Below are positions 1 through 7,910 of a stretch of DNA of 7,910 bases, in pieces. The notes under the pieces are model-generated. The model did no database searches and had not been told where the DNA came from. It saw only the letters and a program-made list of their open reading frames with translations. The DNA comes from an uncultured Gammaproteobacteria bacterium (GTDB lineage Bacteria; Patescibacteriota; Microgenomatia; Daviesbacterales; UBA10151), in assembly GCA_964522265.1 (NCBI GenBank), contig CAZFVS010000034.1, positions 1,501 through 9,410 of the forward strand, read 5' to 3'. Position 1 is the stretch's first letter. Each line of letters opens with the position of its first letter. The position numbers and the translations under genes are program-made.

Positions 1-580
1 GGACCCTTCCTGCAGAAAGACCTCTTTTGACTTTTTTCCAAAGCAGAGGAGAAAGTTTATACCCCACCAGTCTGTCCAGCACCCGCCTGGCTTGCTGCGC
101 ATCAATCAGCTGATAATCCAGATCGCGCGGGTGCTTAAAAGCCTCTTTTATCGCATCCTCTGTAATCTCATGGAAAATCACTCTCCGGATTTCGGATTTC
201 GGATTTCGGATTTCGGATTTTTTCATTTTGGCTTTTGACTTGCTTGTCTCGAGTCTTTCCGAGGGATGACTTTTGATTTCAGAGTTACACAGCAACTCTG
301 AAATATGCCAGGCAATCGCTTCCCCTTCCCGATCAGGATCTGTTGCCAGATAGAGGGTTTTAGCCGATTGGGCAAGTTTTTTTAATTCATTAACCTTTTT
401 CCTTTTATCCCTGGGAATGATATATTTAGGCTCAAAATTTTGCTCCACATCCACTCCAAGCTCGGATTTGGGCAAATCTCTGACATGACCCATTGAAGCT
501 TCTATCTGATATTTAGCTCCCAAAAACTTTGAAAGCGTCCGGGCTTTGGTTGGTGATTCAACAATAACTAAATTTTGCAT
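1..580 (-). CDS. topA: DNA topoisomerase I, N-terminal (TOPRIM) part; the ORF continues past the left edge of the window
   Basis: Hand translation of the minus strand from ATG at 580..578, with no stop down to base 2: [97 protein letters not shown]...[60 protein letters not shown]. It carries the type IA topoisomerase hallmarks VIVESPxKA, GHxRDLP, [12 protein letters not shown], NAQQARRxxDRxVGYxxSPLLWKK and GLSAGRV. It is absent from the supplied ORF track only because it has no stop inside the window. Confidence 0.9.
186..220 (-). repeat. Perfect heptanucleotide tandem repeat, (cggattt)x5 on the plus strand = (AAATCCG)x5 on the coding strand, inside topA
   Basis: Read directly: five identical head-to-tail 7-nt units from 186 to 220. 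In the topA frame they encode [12 protein letters not shown]. The unit length is not a multiple of 3. Confidence 0.95.
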
Positions 581-605
581 ATATTTACTTTCTGGTAATT
601 GTATC

Positions 606-635
606 TTGCTTGTCAAGTAGCAGGTATGCTAAATT
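606..635 (+). promoter_or_regulatory. Putative sigma70-type promoter for the 642..938 ORF: -35-like TTGCTT (606-611), 18-bp spacer, extended -10 TGcTAAATT (627-635)
   Basis: Motif match by eye only. Counting 7 nt from the last base of the -10 hexamer (635) puts +1 on A642, the first base of the ATG. No SD-like sequence lies between. Confidence 0.25.
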
Positions 636-640
636 AGCAT
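626..640. promoter_or_regulatory. Perfect 15-bp palindrome ATGCTAA-A-TTAGCAT (7-1-7), an operator-like site in the topA / 642-ORF divergent intergenic region
   Basis: Read directly: the reverse complement of 626-632 equals 634-640. It overlaps the putative extended -10 and ends 1 nt before the ATG at 642. On the other strand it lies 9 nt upstream of a perfect TTGACA (616..611). Confidence 0.5.
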
Positions 641-641
641 C

Positions 642-938
642 ATGTTAACTAAACAGGACTTGGAAAAAACCCTTGCTAAAATTCTGGATAAAAAGTTGGA
701 GCCAATAAATGAAAGTCTTAACAGTGTAGCGGAAAAGGTTGAAGGTTTAGAAGATTTTAGAACAGAGATGCAAGACTTCCAAGCGGAAACTAAGAAAGCT
801 GCAAAACGCATGGAAAAACGGATAAAGAAAGTCCAAAGAACTTTAGATAGCTATATCGAGGTTTCAGATGAAACTATTCAACAGACTCGAAGAAGGGTTA
901 ATAAAATTGAAGACCACCTCAAACTCCCTGCTGTTTAA
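642..938 (+). CDS. Hypothetical small (98 aa) highly charged, predicted all-helical / coiled-coil protein
   Basis: ORF track entry. The sequence is K/E/Q/R/L rich with heptad-like spacing (LEKTLAKILDKKLEPINESLNSVAEKVEGLEDF...RRRVNKIEDHLKL). It has no TM segment and no motif I recognise. It fills the whole gap between the topA control region and the 3' end of the ATPase gene. That it codes for protein is not proven. Confidence 0.5.
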   Translation: MLTKQDLEKTLAKILDKKLEPINESLNSVAEKVEGLEDFRTEMQDFQAETKKAAKRMEKRIKKVQRTLDSYIEVSDETIQQTRRRVNKIEDHLKLPAV

Positions 939-3472
939 GAATTATTTAAAAGGCTGGCGTCTGCTTTAAACAACTCACCTTTAACCAACCTGTTTTCCAA
1001 CATCATTTTGGAAAGATTTGCTTCTAAGGTATCCTGGATTAATCTGCGCATGGGACGAGCGCCCAAAACAGGGTCGAAACCTTTTTTGGCAAGTCCTGTG
1101 ATAAGATCCTGAGAAAACTCAAGCAGATACCCCTGTTCTTTCATTTGTTTTGACAAAGCATCAAGTTTCAACCTGACTATCTTCTCTAAATCAGGTTCTG
1201 ATAGGGGTTTGAATATGACAATATTGTCAAAACGGTTTACCAGCTCCGGTTTAAAAATTTTGAGCAGTTCACCCCGGACTGTTGTATCAATCTGATTCTG
1301 GATCCGACCCTCTTTCAGCTCCTGCGCTATCAGCAGGGATGCTGCATTCGAGGTAGCGATAATAATAGTATTTGTAAAATCTGTCAGTTTACCTGCTGCA
1401 TCAGTCAATCTCCCGTCATCTAAAACCTGCAGAAAAAGCGTCAAGATGCGCATATTAGCTTTTTCAAATTCATCAAGAAGTATTAATGCATATGGTTTAT
1501 TTTTAACTGCTTCCGTCAACTCTCCGGGATTTTCCAGCGTACCGATCAGACGGTTAACAGCTTCTTCTGTCTGGTACTCAGACATGTCAAAACGTATGAA
1601 AGCCGCCGAGTTTTTAAAATAAACACTGGCCAGAGTTTTTGCAAGTTCAGTTTTGCCTACCCCCGTAGGACCAACGAAAAGGAATGAGCCGATCGGACGC
1701 GATCCCTCCCTCAGCGCTGTAGCGGACCTTCGCAAAGTATCAGACACCACCTTAACAGCTTCTTCCTGATCAATCAATTTTTGGTGGATAATATTTTCAA
1801 GGTCAAGGAGGGTCTGTTTTTGGGAGGCGTCCAGCTCGATTACCGGCACATTAACCCTGCTTTGAAAGACTGCCTTCACCACCCCGGAGGTAATCAATCC
1901 GGTTTTTGCGGCAGCCTCACATTCAGTTAAAACAGACAGCGCTGAGTCAGGCAGAACCCGGTCATGAATCAGCCTGGCGCTCAAAGCTGCAATTTCCTTC
2001 AGAGCAATATAGGTTATTGTTATCCCTTTATTCCTGGCTAAACTTATTGCCTCGTTTTTAAGTATCAGGACCGTATCTGCCTCCGTTGCAGGAGAAAGCT
2101 CCACCTTATGAAAAACTCTGGCAAAACTCCCATTTTTCTCAATAATCCTGGCATAATTTTCCGGTTCAGTTGTGGCAAGAAACTGGAAGGTATTTGATTC
2201 TAAGTAAGGCAAAAGAAGTGAATACAGGTTAAAATTGCTACCCGCTTCCCCCAGCCCTAAATTATGAAGCTCATCTATGAAAATAATTATATCGCCTACA
2301 AATTGGACATCTTGAAAAATATCCTGAACTTTTTGGGCCAACTCCCCTTCAGTAGTAATACCGGATAGCAGTTTGGTAAAATCTATTTCAACCAGCCTCT
2401 TAATAGCCAGCGCCTCGGGGGCATCCCCTGCAATAATCAGTTTAGCCAGATATTTAACCAAGGCAGTCCTTCCCGAACCAGGAGAACCGACAATCAGCAC
2501 ACTTCTGTCTTTTTCCTGAGAAAGAATGTTTACTACTTCGGATACTATTGCATTTTGCCCCACAAAATCCGGGAAGCCTAAAGCTGCAGCATTGCGGGTT
2601 AAATCTTCTGAAACGCTGTCTAAATTCGGAGTCGGTGCAGACAACCAACCCCTGTTAACACCTCTTAAGTGCTTTACGGCAAAATCATCATCCCATATAA
2701 AAACTTTCCGCCATCTGTTTCTCTTAAATTCTAAAAATAGCAGTGCACCCTCAAGATCGCGGGAAGTCAGGTTAACTTTCAAAAGGTCATTCTGAATCCC
2801 CGGAATCTCCAACAGCATCGCCGTCCAAAAATAGGCCGGGGTAATAAACCTGGCTTGGGTTAATTTGGCAAGCTGCCAGACTTTTGCCAGAATATCATCT
2901 TTAAACTCCACCTGATGGCTGTCGAACCTATCCGGTTTAAGCTCTAAGCTAAAAAGAAAGCTGCTTACCTCATCGCTCTTCAACAAATTCTGCCAGATTA
3001 TATCTTTACGCTTCAGTTTAGTAGTCTGCCACAAATCTTCAGTTTTTTTAACCTGCCAAACAGATTTGGGCGGGCTGCTAAATAATCTGTCAATAAACAA
3101 AGCTGCACCAAGCAAAACAATAAAGGAAAAAGCGATCACTACATCAGGTTCAGACAGAAATGGTATCTGTTGAAAAAGGAGAGAAAATAGCAAAAGCGGC
3201 GGTGCCAAAAACCAGGCCAAAGCAACAATTACAATCACCATGCTTGCCAAAACAAAGGCCAGAATCCCCATTAGTATTCTGGATAGCCTGAAAACAAAAC
3301 TTAGAATTTTTCCAACAATGGACGAGTCATGAAAAAGAGGGACAAACAACAACTTAAGCATCAGCCCTACAGCCAGATCCTCTTCCAGAACCATGAGTGA
3401 GTTGTGGTAAACCCGGAGGAATACTATTAGCGCTTGCGGATACCAAAATTGTATTAAATATATGGGCAGCAT
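935..3472 (-). CDS. Membrane-anchored two-ring Clp/Hsp100-family AAA+ ATPase (ClpA-like D1-D2 layout, no M-domain, atypical D1 and pore loops)
   Basis: 845-aa ORF. The N-terminal ~130 aa are hydrophobic (ILMGILAFVLASMVIVIVALAWFLAPPLLLFSLLF, VVIAFSFIVLLGAALFI). D1 motifs: TPNLDSVSEDLTR, Walker A GSPGSGRT (aa 329-336, nt 2465-2488), Walker B IIIFIDELH, LPDSALSVLTE. D2 motifs: Walker A GPTGVGKT (nt 1649-1672, checked at nucleotide level), Walker B LILLDEFEKA, sensor-1 IIATSNA, NRFD, sensor-2 GARPMRRLIQ. The start at 3472 has no SD and M27 is an alternative, so the exact start is uncertain. Confidence 0.9.
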   Translation of the reverse strand: MLPIYLIQFWYPQALIVFLRVYHNSLMVLEEDLAVGLMLKLLFVPLFHDSSIVGKILSFVFRLSRILMGILAFVLASMVIVIVALAWFLAPPLLLFSLLFQQIPFLSEPDVVIAFSFIVLLGAALFIDRLFSSPPKSVWQVKKTEDLWQTTKLKRKDIIWQNLLKSDEVSSFLFSLELKPDRFDSHQVEFKDDILAKVWQLAKLTQARFITPAYFWTAMLLEIPGIQNDLLKVNLTSRDLEGALLFLEFKRNRWRKVFIWDDDFAVKHLRGVNRGWLSAPTPNLDSVSEDLTRNAAALGFPDFVGQNAIVSEVVNILSQEKDRSVLIVGSPGSGRTALVKYLAKLIIAGDAPEALAIKRLVEIDFTKLLSGITTEGELAQKVQDIFQDVQFVGDIIIFIDELHNLGLGEAGSNFNLYSLLLPYLESNTFQFLATTEPENYARIIEKNGSFARVFHKVELSPATEADTVLILKNEAISLARNKGITITYIALKEIAALSARLIHDRVLPDSALSVLTECEAAAKTGLITSGVVKAVFQSRVNVPVIELDASQKQTLLDLENIIHQKLIDQEEAVKVVSDTLRRSATALREGSRPIGSFLFVGPTGVGKTELAKTLASVYFKNSAAFIRFDMSEYQTEEAVNRLIGTLENPGELTEAVKNKPYALILLDEFEKANMRILTLFLQVLDDGRLTDAAGKLTDFTNTIIIATSNAASLLIAQELKEGRIQNQIDTTVRGELLKIFKPELVNRFDNIVIFKPLSEPDLEKIVRLKLDALSKQMKEQGYLLEFSQDLITGLAKKGFDPVLGARPMRRLIQDTLEANLSKMMLENRLVKGELFKADASLLNNS

Positions 3473-3491
3473 AGAAAAAATTTTGAACTTT

Positions 3492-3854
3492 TCACAAAAC
3501 CCTTATCACATTGCCTGTAGGGTCAAGCTCCACAAAATGTTTAGCCCGGCCTTCACGAAAAGCCTGGCATTGATTTTCCGGCAGGTCGTCAACCGGTTGC
3601 CTGGGACTATGGGCAATATCAGCAACCCAACCAGGTAAAAGGTCATTAGTAAGGCATGGCCCATCTGAAAAATCTACACCCAAATCTTTTTTTCGTTCAT
3701 AAACAACTCTGGCCTGGTTCACCACACGATCCAGCTCATTTGAAACTCCGGGTTTATAATCCATATCCTTTTTTTTATTGGTGGTAAAGATCACTATGGT
3801 TACGAAACCAATCACCACCAAAACCAACAATAACAATTTTGAATTAAAGTTCAT
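3492..3854 (-). CDS. Hypothetical small signal-anchored / exported protein (120 aa from the ATG at 3854) with two conserved-looking cysteines
   Basis: The ORF track gives 3492..3932. That start would overlap the dprA 3' end by 50 nt and add a non-descript 26 aa. The internal ATG at 3854 gives MNFNSKLLLLVLVVIGFVTIVIFTTNKKKD..., a classic short N-terminus plus one hydrophobic helix. A soluble ~90-aa domain follows (..DGPCLTNDLLPGWVADIAHSPRQPVDDLPENQCQAFREGRAKHFVELDPTGNVIRVL). It is 28 nt downstream of dprA and 19 nt upstream of the ATPase gene. Confidence 0.6.
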   Translation of the reverse strand: MNFNSKLLLLVLVVIGFVTIVIFTTNKKKDMDYKPGVSNELDRVVNQARVVYERKKDLGVDFSDGPCLTNDLLPGWVADIAHSPRQPVDDLPENQCQAFREGRAKHFVELDPTGNVIRVL

Positions 3855-3882
3855 ACCATAATTGTTGCATGCGGCAACCTGC

Positions 3883-4977
3883 TTAGCAAGTCCGGTTAAT
3901 ACAGTAATTGCCTCCACCCAAGTTTTTAACAAACCCCATTATCTCCATCTTTACCAATGCAGCGCTTACTTCTGACGATGATTTTTTAAGCTCTCTCACC
4001 ACATCATCTACATGCTTCTGCTCATTTTCCAAACACCCAAGTATTGCTTGCTCAACTGCTGATAAATTTTCATAATTTTTTTCTTTTTCCTTTTTACTTT
4101 TTACTTTTTCCATCCCCAGCTCTTCCAAAATATCCTCCACACAAGTCACAAGTTTTGCCCCCTGCTGGATCAGTTGGGCCGGACCTTTTGACAAATCTGA
4201 GGTGATAGGACCGGGGACGGCAAACACATCCTTACCCTGATCCACCGCTAATCTGGCAGTTATCAGGGAACCTGAATCCTGTGCTGCCTCTGTCACCAAA
4301 ACCGCCAAAGATAAACCGGAGATAATCCGGTTCCTGGAAGGAAAATTGCCTGCCAGGGAAGGATAGTCAGGCGGGTATTCGCTGATGAGTGTACCACAAC
4401 CATTGGCAATCAGTTCAGACAAACCGATGTTTTCCGGCGGGAAGATTGAATTTAGCCCTCCTCCCAACACAGCCAGAGTCCGACCCTTTCCGTCTAAGGC
4501 CGATTTGTGAGCCTGTGTATCTACACCCCTTGCCAACCCTGAGATAATTGTAAATCCGAAAGACACCAGCTCCCTGGTAAACCGCTCCGTCACCATCCTA
4601 CCATACCCTGTCATCTTCCTGGTTCCCACCACGCCAATGGCCCGTCTGTCTTCCGGTAAAATCTCACCCTTGTAATAAAATAGAACCGGCGGGTCATAAA
4701 TTTCTTTCAAAGATTTGGGATAATCCTCATCAAAAACAGTCATCCATTTTATGCCGGATTTTTTAATTGAATCTTCGTAGCTTAAAGGTTCTAATTTTTT
4801 GCGTGTTTCAATCAGAAGGTCAATAACTTTCTCCGGAATCCCCAACCCTAAAAACTCTTTTCTTTCCGCTTCCCAGGCAGTTTTAGGATCCTTAAAATAC
4901 TCCAACAGTGTTTTGAGCCTGATCGGCCCCAAACCATCTATGGAATGTAGAGCCAAAAGATATGAAATATTTTTCAT
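3883..4977 (-). CDS. dprA: DNA processing protein A (DprA/Smf), full length: N-terminal SAM-like domain, Rossmann-fold core, C-terminal winged helix
   Basis: 364-aa ORF with the characteristic DprA core: GLARGVDTQAHKSAL, GRTLAVLGGGL, FPPEN, GTLISEYPP, FPSRNRIISGLS, VLVTEAAQDSGSLITARLAVDQGKDVFAVPGPI. A K/E-rich linker comes next, then a WH-like tail (EQAILGCLENEQKHVDDVVRELKKSSSEVSAALVKMEIMGFV). Confidence 0.92.
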   Translation of the reverse strand: MKNISYLLALHSIDGLGPIRLKTLLEYFKDPKTAWEAERKEFLGLGIPEKVIDLLIETRKKLEPLSYEDSIKKSGIKWMTVFDEDYPKSLKEIYDPPVLFYYKGEILPEDRRAIGVVGTRKMTGYGRMVTERFTRELVSFGFTIISGLARGVDTQAHKSALDGKGRTLAVLGGGLNSIFPPENIGLSELIANGCGTLISEYPPDYPSLAGNFPSRNRIISGLSLAVLVTEAAQDSGSLITARLAVDQGKDVFAVPGPITSDLSKGPAQLIQQGAKLVTCVEDILEELGMEKVKSKKEKEKNYENLSAVEQAILGCLENEQKHVDDVVRELKKSSSEVSAALVKMEIMGFVKNLGGGNYCINRTC

Positions 4978-4985
4978 AACACATT

Positions 4986-5014
4986 AGCCTCACAAGGCGT
5001 CCCCTTTCGAGGCT
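4986..5014 (-). promoter_or_regulatory. GC-rich imperfect hairpin in the mrdA-dprA spacer whose 3' arm contains the dprA Shine-Dalgarno (GAGG)
   Basis: Minus-strand RNA reads AGCCUC-GA-AAGG-GGACG-CCUU-GU-GAGGCU. That is a 6-bp outer stem (4986-4991 / 5009-5014), one G.U, one mismatch, a 4-bp inner stem (4994-4997 / 5003-5006) and a 5-nt loop. GAGG (4991..4988) lies 10 nt upstream of the dprA ATG (4977). No U-tract follows, so it is not a canonical intrinsic terminator. Confidence 0.4.
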
Positions 5015-5021
5015 GTACAAA

Positions 5022-6881
5022 CTATTCCCCCAATTTGGCTGAATCTGAGGCAACATAATTTGTGTCTTTGATCAGATTAGTTTTATCAGTTGAGAGAAAC
5101 CACCTGTAAATCTCTTTGGCAACAGGGGCTGCAACTGATGAACCTTCCCCTCCACCCTCTATCAGTACTGTCATTACTAGCTTAGGCTCATCGATAGGTG
5201 CAAACGAGGTATACCAGGCATGTGTTTTCCCTTTAGCATCTCCATACTCTGCTGTCCCTGTCTTCCCTGCTGTTTGTATAGGGAAGGTAAAAAATGGCCA
5301 GGCTGTCCCCCCTTCTTTCGTCACTTCTTTCAACCCCTCTTTGACAAGCTCCAAATATTTGGGTTTAAATGCCTTTAAAACAGACTCACTGAACTTAAAT
5401 TCTTTGATAGTTTGACTATTACTGTTTGTGATCTTCAGGCCTAAGTGAGGGGGAAATTGTTTCCCGTCTGTTGCGATGGTTGAAACCAGGTTGTTGATCC
5501 CAAGCGGGGTCGCCAGAACAAATCCCTGCCCTATTGACATATGGAGTGTATCCCCGGGGTACCATATTTCACCTTTATTTTTCATCTTCCACTCCCTATC
5601 CGGCACTATGCCTACCGCTTCTCCGGGAATATCTATCCCGGTCTTCTTACCCAGCCCAAGTTGCTTGGCAGTTGATGCTAAAACCTCCTCTCCGACAGTT
5701 TGACCCAGCAGGTAGAAAAAAGTGTCATTTGAGCGTTTAAAAGCTTTAACTATATCCATCGACCCCTCAAGTTTGCCATACTGTGTAAAATACCAGTTGC
5801 TGAAACTAGAACTGCCAATATTTATTATCCCGATATCTTCAAACCTGGTCTTATCAGTAATTTTACCGGAAACAAGACCTGCTAGGGCAGAGACTATCTT
5901 AAATGTAGATCCGGGGGGATAAACTCCTGCCAACACCCTGTTTAAAATGGGGGAGTCTTCCCTATCCAGGGCTTCAGAAACCTTTTGTGGGTCAAACGAA
6001 GGATAAGAAACCAGTGTCAGGACTTCCCCGTTTAATGGTTCAACACCGATTAAACTACCGCAGCAACTTCCTGCTTTCTTAATAGCTTCCTCTAAGAGGC
6101 TGTATGCAACATCCTGCAGGTCAGCATCTATTGTAAGAAATAGATTTTGTCCGGGGATAGCATCATTTTTTCTCAAAGTCCTGACTTTTTTACCCTGAGC
6201 ATCAACTTCTATTATCTCACCCCCATCTATCCCCCGAAGCACCCTCTCATAAGCCTCCTCTATTCCACCTCTACCTATTAAATCTCCGCTTTTGTAATTT
6301 TTATAACTGGGGTTTTTTAACTCTTCTGCTGTAATTTCACTTACATAACCTAAGACGTGCGCCATTTTTGCACCTTTAGTGTAAGTTCTGATGCTATCTA
6401 TTTCCAGGTTTTCAAAGGCTGAATCACCTTTAATCTCCATTTTCAATGCATCATCCCGCGAAAGCCGAATAATTTTGGTATTTCCTATCAATCTAAAAGC
6501 CGGTTCATTTTGAGCCAGGATTTTACCATTTCTATCGTAGATTACACCACGGGGCGCATGGATTACCTTAGTTTGAATTCTGTTTGAGTCGGCCAGCTCC
6601 CGATTATTTTTCCCTTCAATTATCTGCAGGTTGAATAACCTGATAAGGAGTATCGAAAAAACTACCATTAAAAAGATTATAAATATCAGTCTTCTCCAGG
6701 GGCCTGAAAGCGGAGGGACAACATTGTCAATATAAGGATTATCTCTTTTTGAGAATTGCCCTGATAATAAAAGGTCGTCATAGGCTTCATTTTCTTTGGT
6801 GTGGGAATGGAAATGGCCGAATTTGAATGCAGCTTTTTTCAGAGTATCCGGAAATGCTTTTCCAAAACGGAATTTAGCCAT
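5022..6881 (-). CDS. mrdA: Penicillin-binding protein 2 (elongasome class B transpeptidase)
   Basis: 619-aa ORF with one TM helix (LIFIIFLMVVFSILLIRLF), a pedestal/dimerisation region (RGVIYDRNGKILA) and the transpeptidase motifs SxxK (GSTFKIV), SxD as in PBP2 (RSNDTFF) and KTGTA. It sits directly after mreC-mreD. Confidence 0.9.
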   Translation of the reverse strand: MAKFRFGKAFPDTLKKAAFKFGHFHSHTKENEAYDDLLLSGQFSKRDNPYIDNVVPPLSGPWRRLIFIIFLMVVFSILLIRLFNLQIIEGKNNRELADSNRIQTKVIHAPRGVIYDRNGKILAQNEPAFRLIGNTKIIRLSRDDALKMEIKGDSAFENLEIDSIRTYTKGAKMAHVLGYVSEITAEELKNPSYKNYKSGDLIGRGGIEEAYERVLRGIDGGEIIEVDAQGKKVRTLRKNDAIPGQNLFLTIDADLQDVAYSLLEEAIKKAGSCCGSLIGVEPLNGEVLTLVSYPSFDPQKVSEALDREDSPILNRVLAGVYPPGSTFKIVSALAGLVSGKITDKTRFEDIGIINIGSSSFSNWYFTQYGKLEGSMDIVKAFKRSNDTFFYLLGQTVGEEVLASTAKQLGLGKKTGIDIPGEAVGIVPDREWKMKNKGEIWYPGDTLHMSIGQGFVLATPLGINNLVSTIATDGKQFPPHLGLKITNSNSQTIKEFKFSESVLKAFKPKYLELVKEGLKEVTKEGGTAWPFFTFPIQTAGKTGTAEYGDAKGKTHAWYTSFAPIDEPKLVMTVLIEGGGEGSSVAAPVAKEIYRWFLSTDKTNLIKDTNYVASDSAKLGE

Positions 6882-7356: not shown

Positions 7357-7910
7357 CTAATTTGTTATTATAAATAATATATCCAAATTCGAAATATCAA
7401 ACATAGGCTTGGCTTTGGCCTGTTTAAAAATCTGGTTGTCGGAATCTACAACCTCGGTAACCCGACCCAGTACCAACCCTCTCGGAGTTTCACCCTCTGT
7501 TCCTGCAGAATAAACCAGGTCCCCTTTATCGATAGGCTCCTGGTGCAAAATCTTATCAAACAGCATCTCTGAGCCAAACTGCCCCAGGAGCACCCCTTTA
7601 GCCCGCCCATTCGGATTGAAGCTATAGACAGCTATTTTAAAATCAGGATCCGAAGTGAGCAAGACTTTTGATTTTTTAGGACTCACCTCTTTTATCTGGC
7701 CTATAAAATTATCTTTGTAAACCACAGACATATTAATTTTCAATCCATCTTCCGATCCTTTATCAATAAATAAATATCTCGTTAGTCCGACCGGGCGGGC
7801 CGGTACCAGGTTAAAAGTTTTTGGGTTTAATGTTTTTTGTTGTTCTAAAAAACTTTGGGTTTCAGAAAGCTGGCGCCTCAGATTGGCATTTTCAGAAATA
7901 ATCTGAGCCA
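7357..7910 (-). CDS. mreC: Rod shape-determining protein MreC, 5' end outside the window
   Basis: The track starts this ORF at a TTG (7743), but the frame stays open to the right edge. Hand translation of 7744-7908 gives ..AQIISENANLRRQLSETQSFLEQQKTLNPKTFNLVPARPVGLTRYLFIDKGSEDGL, continuing into KINMSVVYKDNFIGQIKEVSPKKSKVLLTSDPDFKIAV... This matches the MreC coiled-coil followed by the IDKGSxDG / VVxxxxxxGxVxEV beta-domains. Confidence 0.88.
   Translation of the reverse strand, partial: AQIISENANLRRQLSETQSFLEQQKTLNPKTFNLVPARPVGLTRYLFIDKGSEDGLKINMSVVYKDNFIGQIKEVSPKKSKVLLTSDPDFKIAVYSFNPNGRAKGVLLGQFGSEMLFDKILHQEPIDKGDLVYSAGTEGETPRGLVLGRVTEVVDSDNQIFKQAKAKPMFDISNLDILFIITN

Follow-up and report, generated by a model that had tools for sequence, protein, structure and literature searches.

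The 7,910-nt stretch of contig CAZFVS010000034.1 analysed here (the window, to whose positions all nucleotide coordinates refer) encodes on its minus strand an 845-residue Clp/Hsp100-like ATPase, whose residue numbering is used throughout. The Hsp100/Clp proteins are the textbook case of AAA+ machines in which conserved tyrosines draw a polypeptide through the central pore, and to our knowledge all characterised members are soluble. The window protein is an undescribed variant of this well-known chaperone family. It is predicted to be anchored in the membrane by a transmembrane (TM) hairpin, and judging from sequence alignments the canonical pore-1 tyrosines of both of its rings are lost clade-wide. 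With moderate confidence, we read it as a ClpP-independent, D2-driven Hsp100 that would be embedded in the membrane and may work by a non-canonical, possibly non-threading mechanism. We found no account of a TM-fused or tyrosine-less Hsp100 from the candidate phyla radiation (CPR) in full-text searches of the literature.

The window stems from an uncultured, ultra-small bacterium, and its nearest relatives are metagenome-assembled genomes (MAGs) of Candidatus Daviesbacteria (Microgenomates, Patescibacteria/CPR). From the N- to the C-terminus the protein comprises juxtamembrane helices, the TM hairpin, a putative, diverged domain of the Clp_N fold, a linker, the D1 and D2 rings and a ClpB-type small domain (Table 1). 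Among the matches listed there are at least 120 full-length homologues with 55-75% identity to the window protein; 120 of these have lengths of 809-897 residues, and their alignments span 94-100% of the query (97% or more in nearly every case). All of the peptides quoted in a first-pass annotation, which was made from the letters of the DNA and the translations of its open reading frames (ORFs), lie in this one frame. It is not a chance ORF, because the motifs of D2 show no variation in 120 sequences.

ATPase rings and pore loops

The assignment of Clp-type D1 and D2 modules in the first-pass annotation is borne out by both profile and structure searches. Pfam places AAA at residues 325-451 (E-value of 8.6e-22), AAA_lid_9 at 464-524 (2.3e-8), AAA_2 at 592-751 (1.6e-48) and ClpB_D2-small at 757-833. 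The modelled D1 and D2 modules together retrieve ClpC and ClpB chains with Foldseek at E-values of 1e-47 to 1e-38 and a TM-score of about 0.8, and the best relative of solved structure is ClpB from T. thermophilus (1qvr; 6e-110). The scores against the NCBIfam equivalogs are 448.1 bits for ClpB (TIGR03346; cut-off 1232.1), 407.5 bits for ClpA (TIGR02639; cut-off 993.15) and 337.9 bits for ClpV (cut-off 884.95). The window protein is closest to ClpB in sequence and to ClpA in layout.

The two rings differ in how well their catalytic residues are kept. In D2, the Walker A (GPTGVGKT), Walker B (LLDEFEKA), sensor-1 (TSN) and arginine-finger (NRFD) motifs are invariant in the 120 sequences, as is the sensor-2 motif GARP.RR at residues 804-810 in the D2-small domain. 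In D1, position 335 is Lys in 103 of the 120 homologues and Arg in the remaining 17, and it is Arg in the window protein. The Walker B DE pair is present in the window protein, while the ERR of ClpB, which contains the second D1 arginine, reads ARV. Other lineages show a Walker A of GKE or a Walker B of PD, PE, DA or DD. Catalysis by D1 is doubtful in the window protein given the Lys-to-Arg change in Walker A, and the spread of such variants suggests an independent loss of its catalytic function in several lineages.

The loss of the pore tyrosines is the most unusual feature of the protein, and it had escaped the first-pass annotation. The family consensus of the D1 pore-1 loop is SG[VI][RK]TEGELA, in which the KYR of ClpB has become [RK]TE (TTE in the window protein). 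The tyrosine position is occupied by Thr, Ser, Asn, Gly or Val in 115 of the 120 sequences, none of these residues being aromatic. The D1 aromatic is also absent from all 40 full-length representatives of clusters at 50% identity, which include members from WWE3 and other Patescibacteria. The D2 loop (columns 645-649) is variable and hydrophilic in the 120 homologues; in the 40 representatives it is either shortened or of full length with the tyrosine replaced by Ser, Gln, His, Glu or Asn. Mutagenesis of ClpB (Y653) and of Hsp104 (Y662) has shown that there is no translocation without the D2 tyrosine. That this residue is lost throughout the clade while the ATPase site is perfectly conserved suggests that the protein acts in a different way, and not that it is decaying. 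An ATP-driven switch had been one of the roles proposed in the first-pass annotation, and the loss of both pore tyrosines favours such a non-canonical option over ordinary threading.

Two elements that characterise the soluble relatives are also missing, in line with what had been proposed from the DNA. The first is the M-domain: in an alignment with ClpB, residues 525 and 527 of the window protein bridge ClpB residues 404 and 531, so that a coiled coil of about 125 residues is skipped, and the AlphaFold2 (AF2) model contains no long coiled coil. The second is the ClpP-docking loop. A regular-expression search for the [ILV]G[FL] tripeptide between sensor-1 (ATSNA) and the arginine finger (NRFD) found none in the window protein, and the tripeptide is lacking in 117 of 118 homologues, the sole match being one chance LGL. 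The length of this segment in the homologues, 32-44 residues, is ClpB-like.

These results bear directly on whether the protein might be the ATPase partner of ClpP, that is, a divergent ClpC or ClpA that docks through a non-canonical surface. Source annotations do call its relatives 'ATP-dependent Clp protease ATP-binding subunit (ClpC)', but these annotations are automatic; ClpC-ClpP complexes are among the best Foldseek matches, but D2 is most similar to ClpB. Together with the near-universal absence of the loop from a segment of ClpB length, this makes a role as ClpP partner very improbable. No ClpP gene was found in the fetched flanks of ±10 kb (1.5 Mb in total) with an approximate E. coli ClpP query, a result that is uninformative for whole genomes. 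The refutation that the first-pass annotation had set against itself, an ordinary ClpC or ClpA whose ClpP loop had been misaligned, fails on the same survey of 118 homologues.

Membrane module, Clp_N-like domain and linker

The N-terminal region has two peaks of Kyte-Doolittle hydropathy (residues 66-84 and 109-127), and no further hydrophobic 19-mer was found in the other 685 residues of the window protein. Across the 120 homologues the first TM helix is essentially without charges, the loop that joins it to the second averages five residues, and the counts of Lys and Arg are about 6.7 before the hairpin and 6.9 after it. The positive residues on both sides argue for an N-in/C-in topology with the ATPase rings in the cytoplasm. 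The full-length AF2 model, built from a 116-sequence alignment, has a mean predicted local distance difference test (pLDDT) score of 87.9 and a predicted TM-score (pTM) of 0.79, with helices at residues 2-33, 35-40, 52-99 and 109-132; both TM segments are helical in the AF2 models, with a pLDDT of 88-97. By prediction, the protein is therefore an integral membrane protein with a two-TM hairpin and both ends in the cytoplasm. Where the first-pass annotation had seen two to four hydrophobic helices in residues ~1-130, two are retained here as TM helices and the other two are conserved juxtamembrane helices. The best-conserved part of the N-terminal region is residues 29-69, in which E31, P45, H48, D49, G54, R62 and R65 are invariant. 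The broader proposal of a membrane-tethered, Hsp100-like protein agrees with the hairpin predicted in more than 120 homologues and with the Clp domain matches.

The first ~100 residues also occur as a protein in their own right. A profile of residues 1-290 matched 300 proteins at an E-value of at most 1e-3 among 1.84 billion cluster representatives, and the best 150 of these 300 include 40 full-length proteins (at least 750 residues) and 72 small ones (at most 200 residues). The small matches are typically 97-157 residues long and cover only profile positions ~5-100. When the fused N-termini were compared by hhalign with 59 stand-alone proteins, the two groups aligned over 97 columns with 99.8% probability and an E-value of 2.4e-27. 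The stand-alone CPR proteins are thus homologous to residues 5-101 and share their signature, W..(helix)..P-L-[FY]-x-D...G-R...R..R + TM...W...P (P0195-P0270), but they are separate polypeptides. No Pfam family covers them, and they are a candidate for a new domain family (a domain of unknown function, DUF). Two apparent family matches were rejected. PF22571 (PspC/LiaF TM region) was hit by two of 23 fused and two of 59 stand-alone proteins, with a best E-value of 0.011, which is below the cut-off and was taken as noise from hydrophobic composition; a match to 'Baculo_P15' in nine of 23 members (best E-value of 6e-4) was judged to be spurious.

Four loci with the small gene were examined, and in each it is followed directly by a gene for a Clp-like ATPase, at a spacing that ranges from a 4-nt overlap to a 42-nt gap. 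The widest gap is in L004, where the partner is 33% identical to residues 174-447 of the window protein, has a tyrosine-less D1 loop and matches Clp_N. In L006/L007 the gap is 1 nt and the partner contains AAA, lid_9 and AAA_2; in L090/L091 the genes overlap by 4 nt and the partner ATPase has 838 residues; in L005/L095 they overlap by 1 nt and the partner, which has a weak Clp_N match, ends at the contig end. The L090 and L006 partners have a TM hairpin of their own at residues ~24-66; in the L004 and L005 partners, both of which are truncated, no such segment was found. D1 is more degenerate in the split-form partners, with a Walker A of GKE (GIGKE) and a Walker B of PD or PE. The comparison of sequences indicates that the first ~100 residues are an independent evolutionary module. 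Nothing else argues as strongly for joint action of this membrane module and the ATPase as the Rosetta-stone pattern of split and fused forms. The two forms point to a new, un-annotated family of small membrane proteins as a dedicated partner module of the ATPase.

A further N-terminal variant was noted among the split forms. The partner in L095 (4421-5380) and L005 (767-1549) begins with a CxxC...CxxC zinc-ribbon-like motif (MERLPFILCPTCKGTGVLP...CTTCGQSG), which is followed by a hydrophobic segment and then by the weak Clp_N match.

The existence of split forms raises the question of whether the N-terminal 130 residues of the window protein could belong to another gene and have been added, through a frameshift or a wrongly called start, to what is really a soluble Clp ATPase. 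No obvious Shine-Dalgarno sequence lies 5' of the ATPase ATG, and the module is indeed a separate gene in other lineages. Against this, the contiguous N-terminus recurs in over 120 independent homologues, taken from different assemblies. Those of the 120 listed start within a few residues of the window ATG, and the region is read in a single frame in at least 97 GTDB species, most of them Daviesbacteria. The region is also modelled confidently by AF2, and the partner ATPases of L090 and L006 carry a hairpin even though their module is separate. The homologue set excludes such an artefact, and we give it almost no credence; the frameshift or separate upstream gene that the first-pass annotation had named as a possible refutation is contradicted by a hairpin predicted in the same ORF in all of these homologues.

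Between the hairpin and D1, the AF2 model of residues 1-290 (pLDDT of 84.8) contains eight helices between residues 144 and 253 with a pLDDT of about 90. A Foldseek search of the PDB with residues ~140-255 gave about 28 top matches that are almost all Clp N-domains (ClpB 1khy, ClpC1 6pbs, ClpC, HSP101 and ClpA). The Foldseek probabilities are 0.97 for the ClpB N-terminal domain (1khy) and 0.98 for that of ClpC1, at weak E-values of 0.17-1 and a TM-score (TMt) of 0.43-0.48 over about 100-108 columns. At the level of sequence profiles, no Pfam or NCBIfam family, Clp_N included, matches the N-terminal 300 residues of the window protein even at an E-value of up to 10. Clp_N is detected in only one of 23 relatives, marginally (E-value of 0.17), and in split-form relatives it scores 21.9 bits, above the gathering cut-off of 20.7, and 16.6 bits. 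The 'one Clp_N-repeat-like segment' of the first-pass annotation was therefore probably right as to the fold and too narrow as to the extent: the models and the split-form matches suggest a whole, very divergent N-domain in place of a single repeat.

The linker that follows is specific to the family. Its residues W260, L269, G271, N273, R274, G275, W276 and L284 are invariant, and the motif is kept in distant fused and split members. Its pLDDT is low in the model that lacks D1.

Mode of action and comparison with known machines

In the mechanism that we favour, the protein would assemble into hexamers that 12 TM helices hold to the cytoplasmic side of the membrane. D2 would be the hydrolytic motor, and D1 would mainly bind nucleotide and stabilise the ring. 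The machine would operate without ClpP and, lacking the M-domain coiled coil, without coupling to DnaK. Its ATP-driven work would probably not be classical hand-over-hand threading of a polypeptide, because the substrate-gripping tyrosines are gone clade-wide. Nucleotide-driven movements could instead be passed through the Clp_N-like domain and the linker to the membrane module, where a membrane-embedded partner or client would be remodelled, gated or released, so that the protein would act as a remodeller or switch at the level of the membrane.

Several points weigh against this mechanism. The loss of the pore tyrosines does not prove a loss of threading, and a few distant members keep the second aromatic of the D2 loop. 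D1 is canonical (GK[ST] and DE) in most Daviesbacteria and may be active there. The predicted topology is drawn from hydropathy, charge bias and AF2, and the term 'ClpP-independent' derives solely from the missing docking loop. Outside Daviesbacteria, the gene neighbourhoods show no consistent functional partner.

The same observations can be accommodated by a more conventional protein: a membrane-tethered Hsp100 unfoldase or extractase that threads membrane or envelope proteins, like a protease-less FtsH or Msp1, and grips them with non-aromatic pore residues. The overall fold is that of ClpB/ClpC with an intact D2 motor, the D1 loop has a conserved and not a random sequence, and the anchor puts the ATPase beside membrane clients. 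Genes for PBP2 or a class A PBP adjoin or lie near the ATPase gene in three lineages, although this is not universal. It is the D2 loop that makes this reading tentative, and clearly less probable than the one that we favour: the translocation tyrosine is missing in every member examined, and the loop of Daviesbacteria, besides being short and hydrophilic or acidic, shows little conservation, unlike a selected gripping element. A bolder form of the non-threading mechanism appears possible too, if slightly less so than the conventional unfoldase. Here threading would have been abandoned altogether, and the D2 cycle would drive the protein's own membrane module, which would serve some envelope process as a gate, switch or assembly factor powered by ATP. 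The protein would be a prokaryotic counterpart of the non-threading membrane AAA+ proteins Torsin and Bcs1, and these minimal genomes might encode no other Hsp100.

Torsins are AAA+ proteins of the eukaryotic endoplasmic reticulum and nuclear envelope that are related to the D2 ring of Clp/Hsp100, have an N-terminal hydrophobic segment and are membrane-associated. They have no aromatic pore-loop residues and are thought to be switches or remodellers rather than threaders. The likeness to the window protein (a Clp-D2-like ring, membrane association and no aromatic pore loop) may be taken as a functional analogy only. Torsins are eukaryotic and lumenal, with a single ring and no arginine finger of their own, which is supplied by LAP1 or LULL1, whereas the window protein has two rings, an intact arginine finger and a predicted cytoplasmic location of the rings. 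FtsH, Msp1/ATAD1 and Bcs1 resemble it in that an N-terminal TM anchor puts an AAA ring (a hexamer, or a heptamer in Bcs1) at the membrane, where it acts on membrane proteins, and Bcs1 shows that such a protein can work without threading. However, all of them have a single ring of the classical AAA clade and neither a Clp_N nor a ClpB_D2-small domain. FtsH in addition has a protease domain, and FtsH and Msp1 keep aromatic pore loops, unlike the window protein. The window protein belongs to neither the Torsin, the FtsH/Msp1 nor the Bcs1 family.

Of the soluble Hsp100 proteins, ClpB/Hsp104 is the closest in sequence and shares the two rings, the ClpB_D2-small domain, the length of the loop-less segment after sensor-1 and, judging from the predicted structure, probably an N-domain of the Clp_N fold. 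The window protein differs from it in having no M-domain and no pore-1 tyrosines, in being predicted to be membrane-integral where ClpB is soluble, and in a score far below the equivalog cut-off. ClpA and ClpC share the two-ring layout, and similarities extend to the short, ClpA-like D1-D2 junction and the fold match to chains of the ClpC/ClpC1 hexamers; the IGL/VGF loop, the short M-domain of ClpC and the pore tyrosines are absent from the window protein, and the putative TM anchor is additional. ClpV/TssH differs in its score, as given above, and in context: the neighbours here are mreCD, pbp2, dprA and topA, with no genes of a type VI secretion system.

Gene neighbourhood, distribution and annotation

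The gene order mreC-mreD-pbp2-dprA-small protein-ATPase-topA is nearly universal in the 80 Daviesbacteria-type loci that were compared. The small protein is found in 70 of them, DprA in 67, PBP2 in 73, MreD in 69, MreC in 68 and TopA in 71, in each case on the strand of the ATPase gene except for one TopA match. The adjacency of dprA and topA is a widespread, ancestral synteny in many bacteria. In the window the two genes are parted by exactly the pair of small protein and ATPase, and likewise in about 70 Daviesbacteria species, which looks like an ancient insertion of the pair into a conserved dprA/topA pair. A scan of positions 400-5100 for sigma-70 promoters and intrinsic terminators came out empty on the minus strand from dprA to the ATPase gene, and the counts did not exceed those in shuffled sequences.

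This setting could suggest that the ATPase is a DNA-handling motor for natural transformation or DNA topology, since it lies between dprA and topA, in the order dprA-small protein-ATPase-topA, in about 70 of the 80 loci, and the AAA+ clade includes RuvB. But the dprA-topA adjacency is general ancestral synteny, the association is gone in distant lineages, the D2 loop is acidic or neutral and not basic, and Pfam detects no DNA-binding domain. We consider a DNA motor very improbable, marginally more so than a ClpP partner. The synteny in Daviesbacteria is read as mainly inherited gene order, with the adjacency to dprA and topA coincidental to function.

The 120-residue protein encoded upstream is a possible partner of the ATPase. 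Of the 74 loci with enough flank, 70 encode it on the same strand, with a median of about 190 nt from the midpoint of the hit to the Clp start. It is nearly always immediately upstream (one outlier is 4.4 kb away). In about two thirds of the loci it is estimated to end no more than 25 nt before the ATPase gene, and in the others the estimated gap is larger, mostly 30-220 nt. Its C-terminal domain, GPC..D..W..D..H.PR..D..PENQC..F..G..HFVELD, is strongly conserved and has two conserved Cys residues. All of its 621 homologues are 'hypothetical' and Daviesbacteria-type; it has no Pfam match and was not found in the neighbourhoods of the distant lineages. A Lys-rich stretch follows its TM segment, and the C-terminal domain may be cytoplasmic.

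The remaining neighbours are less constant. The 149-residue ORF in the mreD position has no Pfam match, is conserved in 69 of the 80 loci and is presumably a very divergent MreD. The pbp2-dprA interval is a variable spot that in some relatives holds a toxin-antitoxin-like DUF433/DUF5615 pair or a 149-residue gene on the opposite strand (L001 7897-8504; L002 8144-8593), neither of which is in the window. The plus-strand ORF of 98 residues has an 84-residue counterpart called only in the closest relative (L001) and a tblastn match in one of the 80 loci, and may be either a lineage-specific small gene or spurious. Outside Daviesbacteria, the neighbours are an S24/S26 peptidase upstream in WWE3, Band_7/TetR, S8 peptidase/MFS, and a class A PBP two genes away. 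Three distant lineages have a gene for release factor RF-1 (PCRF) at a distance of 0.7-2.6 kb downstream from the fused ATPase (L088 5550-6641, L089 14194-15210 and L094 9316-10347), which may be residual synteny or chance.

Table 1. Features of the window; aa, residues of the 845-aa window protein
Feature	Position (nt)	Strand	Remarks
Clp/Hsp100-like ATPase gene	935..3472	-	complete coding sequence, ATG start, 845 aa
Conserved membrane module, aa 5-101	3170..3460	-	FWY...LEEDLAVGLM..LLF.PLFHD...GR.LSF.FR..RI..G + first TM helix; no Pfam family
Predicted TM helix 1, aa 66-99	3176..3277	-	Kyte-Doolittle peak 3.0; charge-free in 120 homologues; within AF2 helix 52-99
Predicted TM helix 2, aa 109-132	3077..3148	-	Kyte-Doolittle peak 2.37; AF2 helix 109-132; K/R-rich segment after
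Putative diverged Clp_N-fold helical domain, aa ~140-255	2708..3055	-	eight predicted helices and Foldseek matches
Family-specific linker, aa 256-292	2597..2707	-	W-D-[DE]-D-F...HL[KR]G[VI]NRGW...PTP.LD..S.D, directly before D1
D1 AAA+ module, aa ~300-530	1883..2575	-	no M-domain insertion
D1 Walker A, aa 329-336	2465..2488	-	GSPGSGRT; catalytic Lys replaced by Arg
D1 pore-1 loop	2336..2365	-	SGITTEGELA; no aromatic; ClpB has AGAKYRGEFE
D2 AAA+ module, aa 592-751	1220..1699	-	catalytic set intact
D2 pore-1 loop	1514..1552	-	RLIGT------LENPGELT; six-residue deletion removes GYVG (against T. thermophilus and E. coli ClpB)
Sensor-1 to Arg-finger segment, aa 709-742	1247..1348	-	site of the [ILV]G[FL] loop in ClpA/ClpC/ClpX; loop absent
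ClpB_D2-small C-terminal domain, aa 757-833	974..1204	-	PF10431, E 9.7e-22
120-aa single-TM protein	3492-3854	-	just upstream of the ATPase gene, gap 19 nt
dprA	3883-4977	-	
PBP2	5022-6881	-	
Polytopic membrane ORF, 149 aa	6887-7336	-	mreD position, between mreC and pbp2
mreC	7357-7908	-	runs off the right end of the window
topA N-terminus	2-580	-	80% identical to TopA of the closest relative
98-aa coiled-coil-like ORF	642-938	+	4-nt overlap with the ATPase stop codon

Distant fused members of the ATPase family come from WWE3 and other Patescibacteria, and as far as seen the family is limited to the Patescibacteria (CPR), few of the matches carrying names. Dozens of GTDB representative MAGs with a Daviesbacteria-type locus (L009, L011, L012, L014 and others) are titled 'uncultured Gammaproteobacteria bacterium isolate binchicken_... 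/ SRP...'; these titles are evidently placeholder mis-labels.

The homologues are labelled 'ClpC', 'ATP-dependent Clp protease ATP-binding subunit' or 'AAA family ATPase' in the databases. The family is not rare: it is common in Patescibacteria but has gone unrecognised, and the comparison shows that it is systematically mis-annotated, under 'ClpC' or 'ATP-dependent Clp protease subunit'. This large and conserved clade provides a natural test of whether the Hsp100 scaffold can perform useful work without canonical threading. The CPR/Patescibacteria may hold a large share of bacterial diversity, and this clade of ATPases adds to what is still a poorly understood part of their biology, the envelope and proteostasis.

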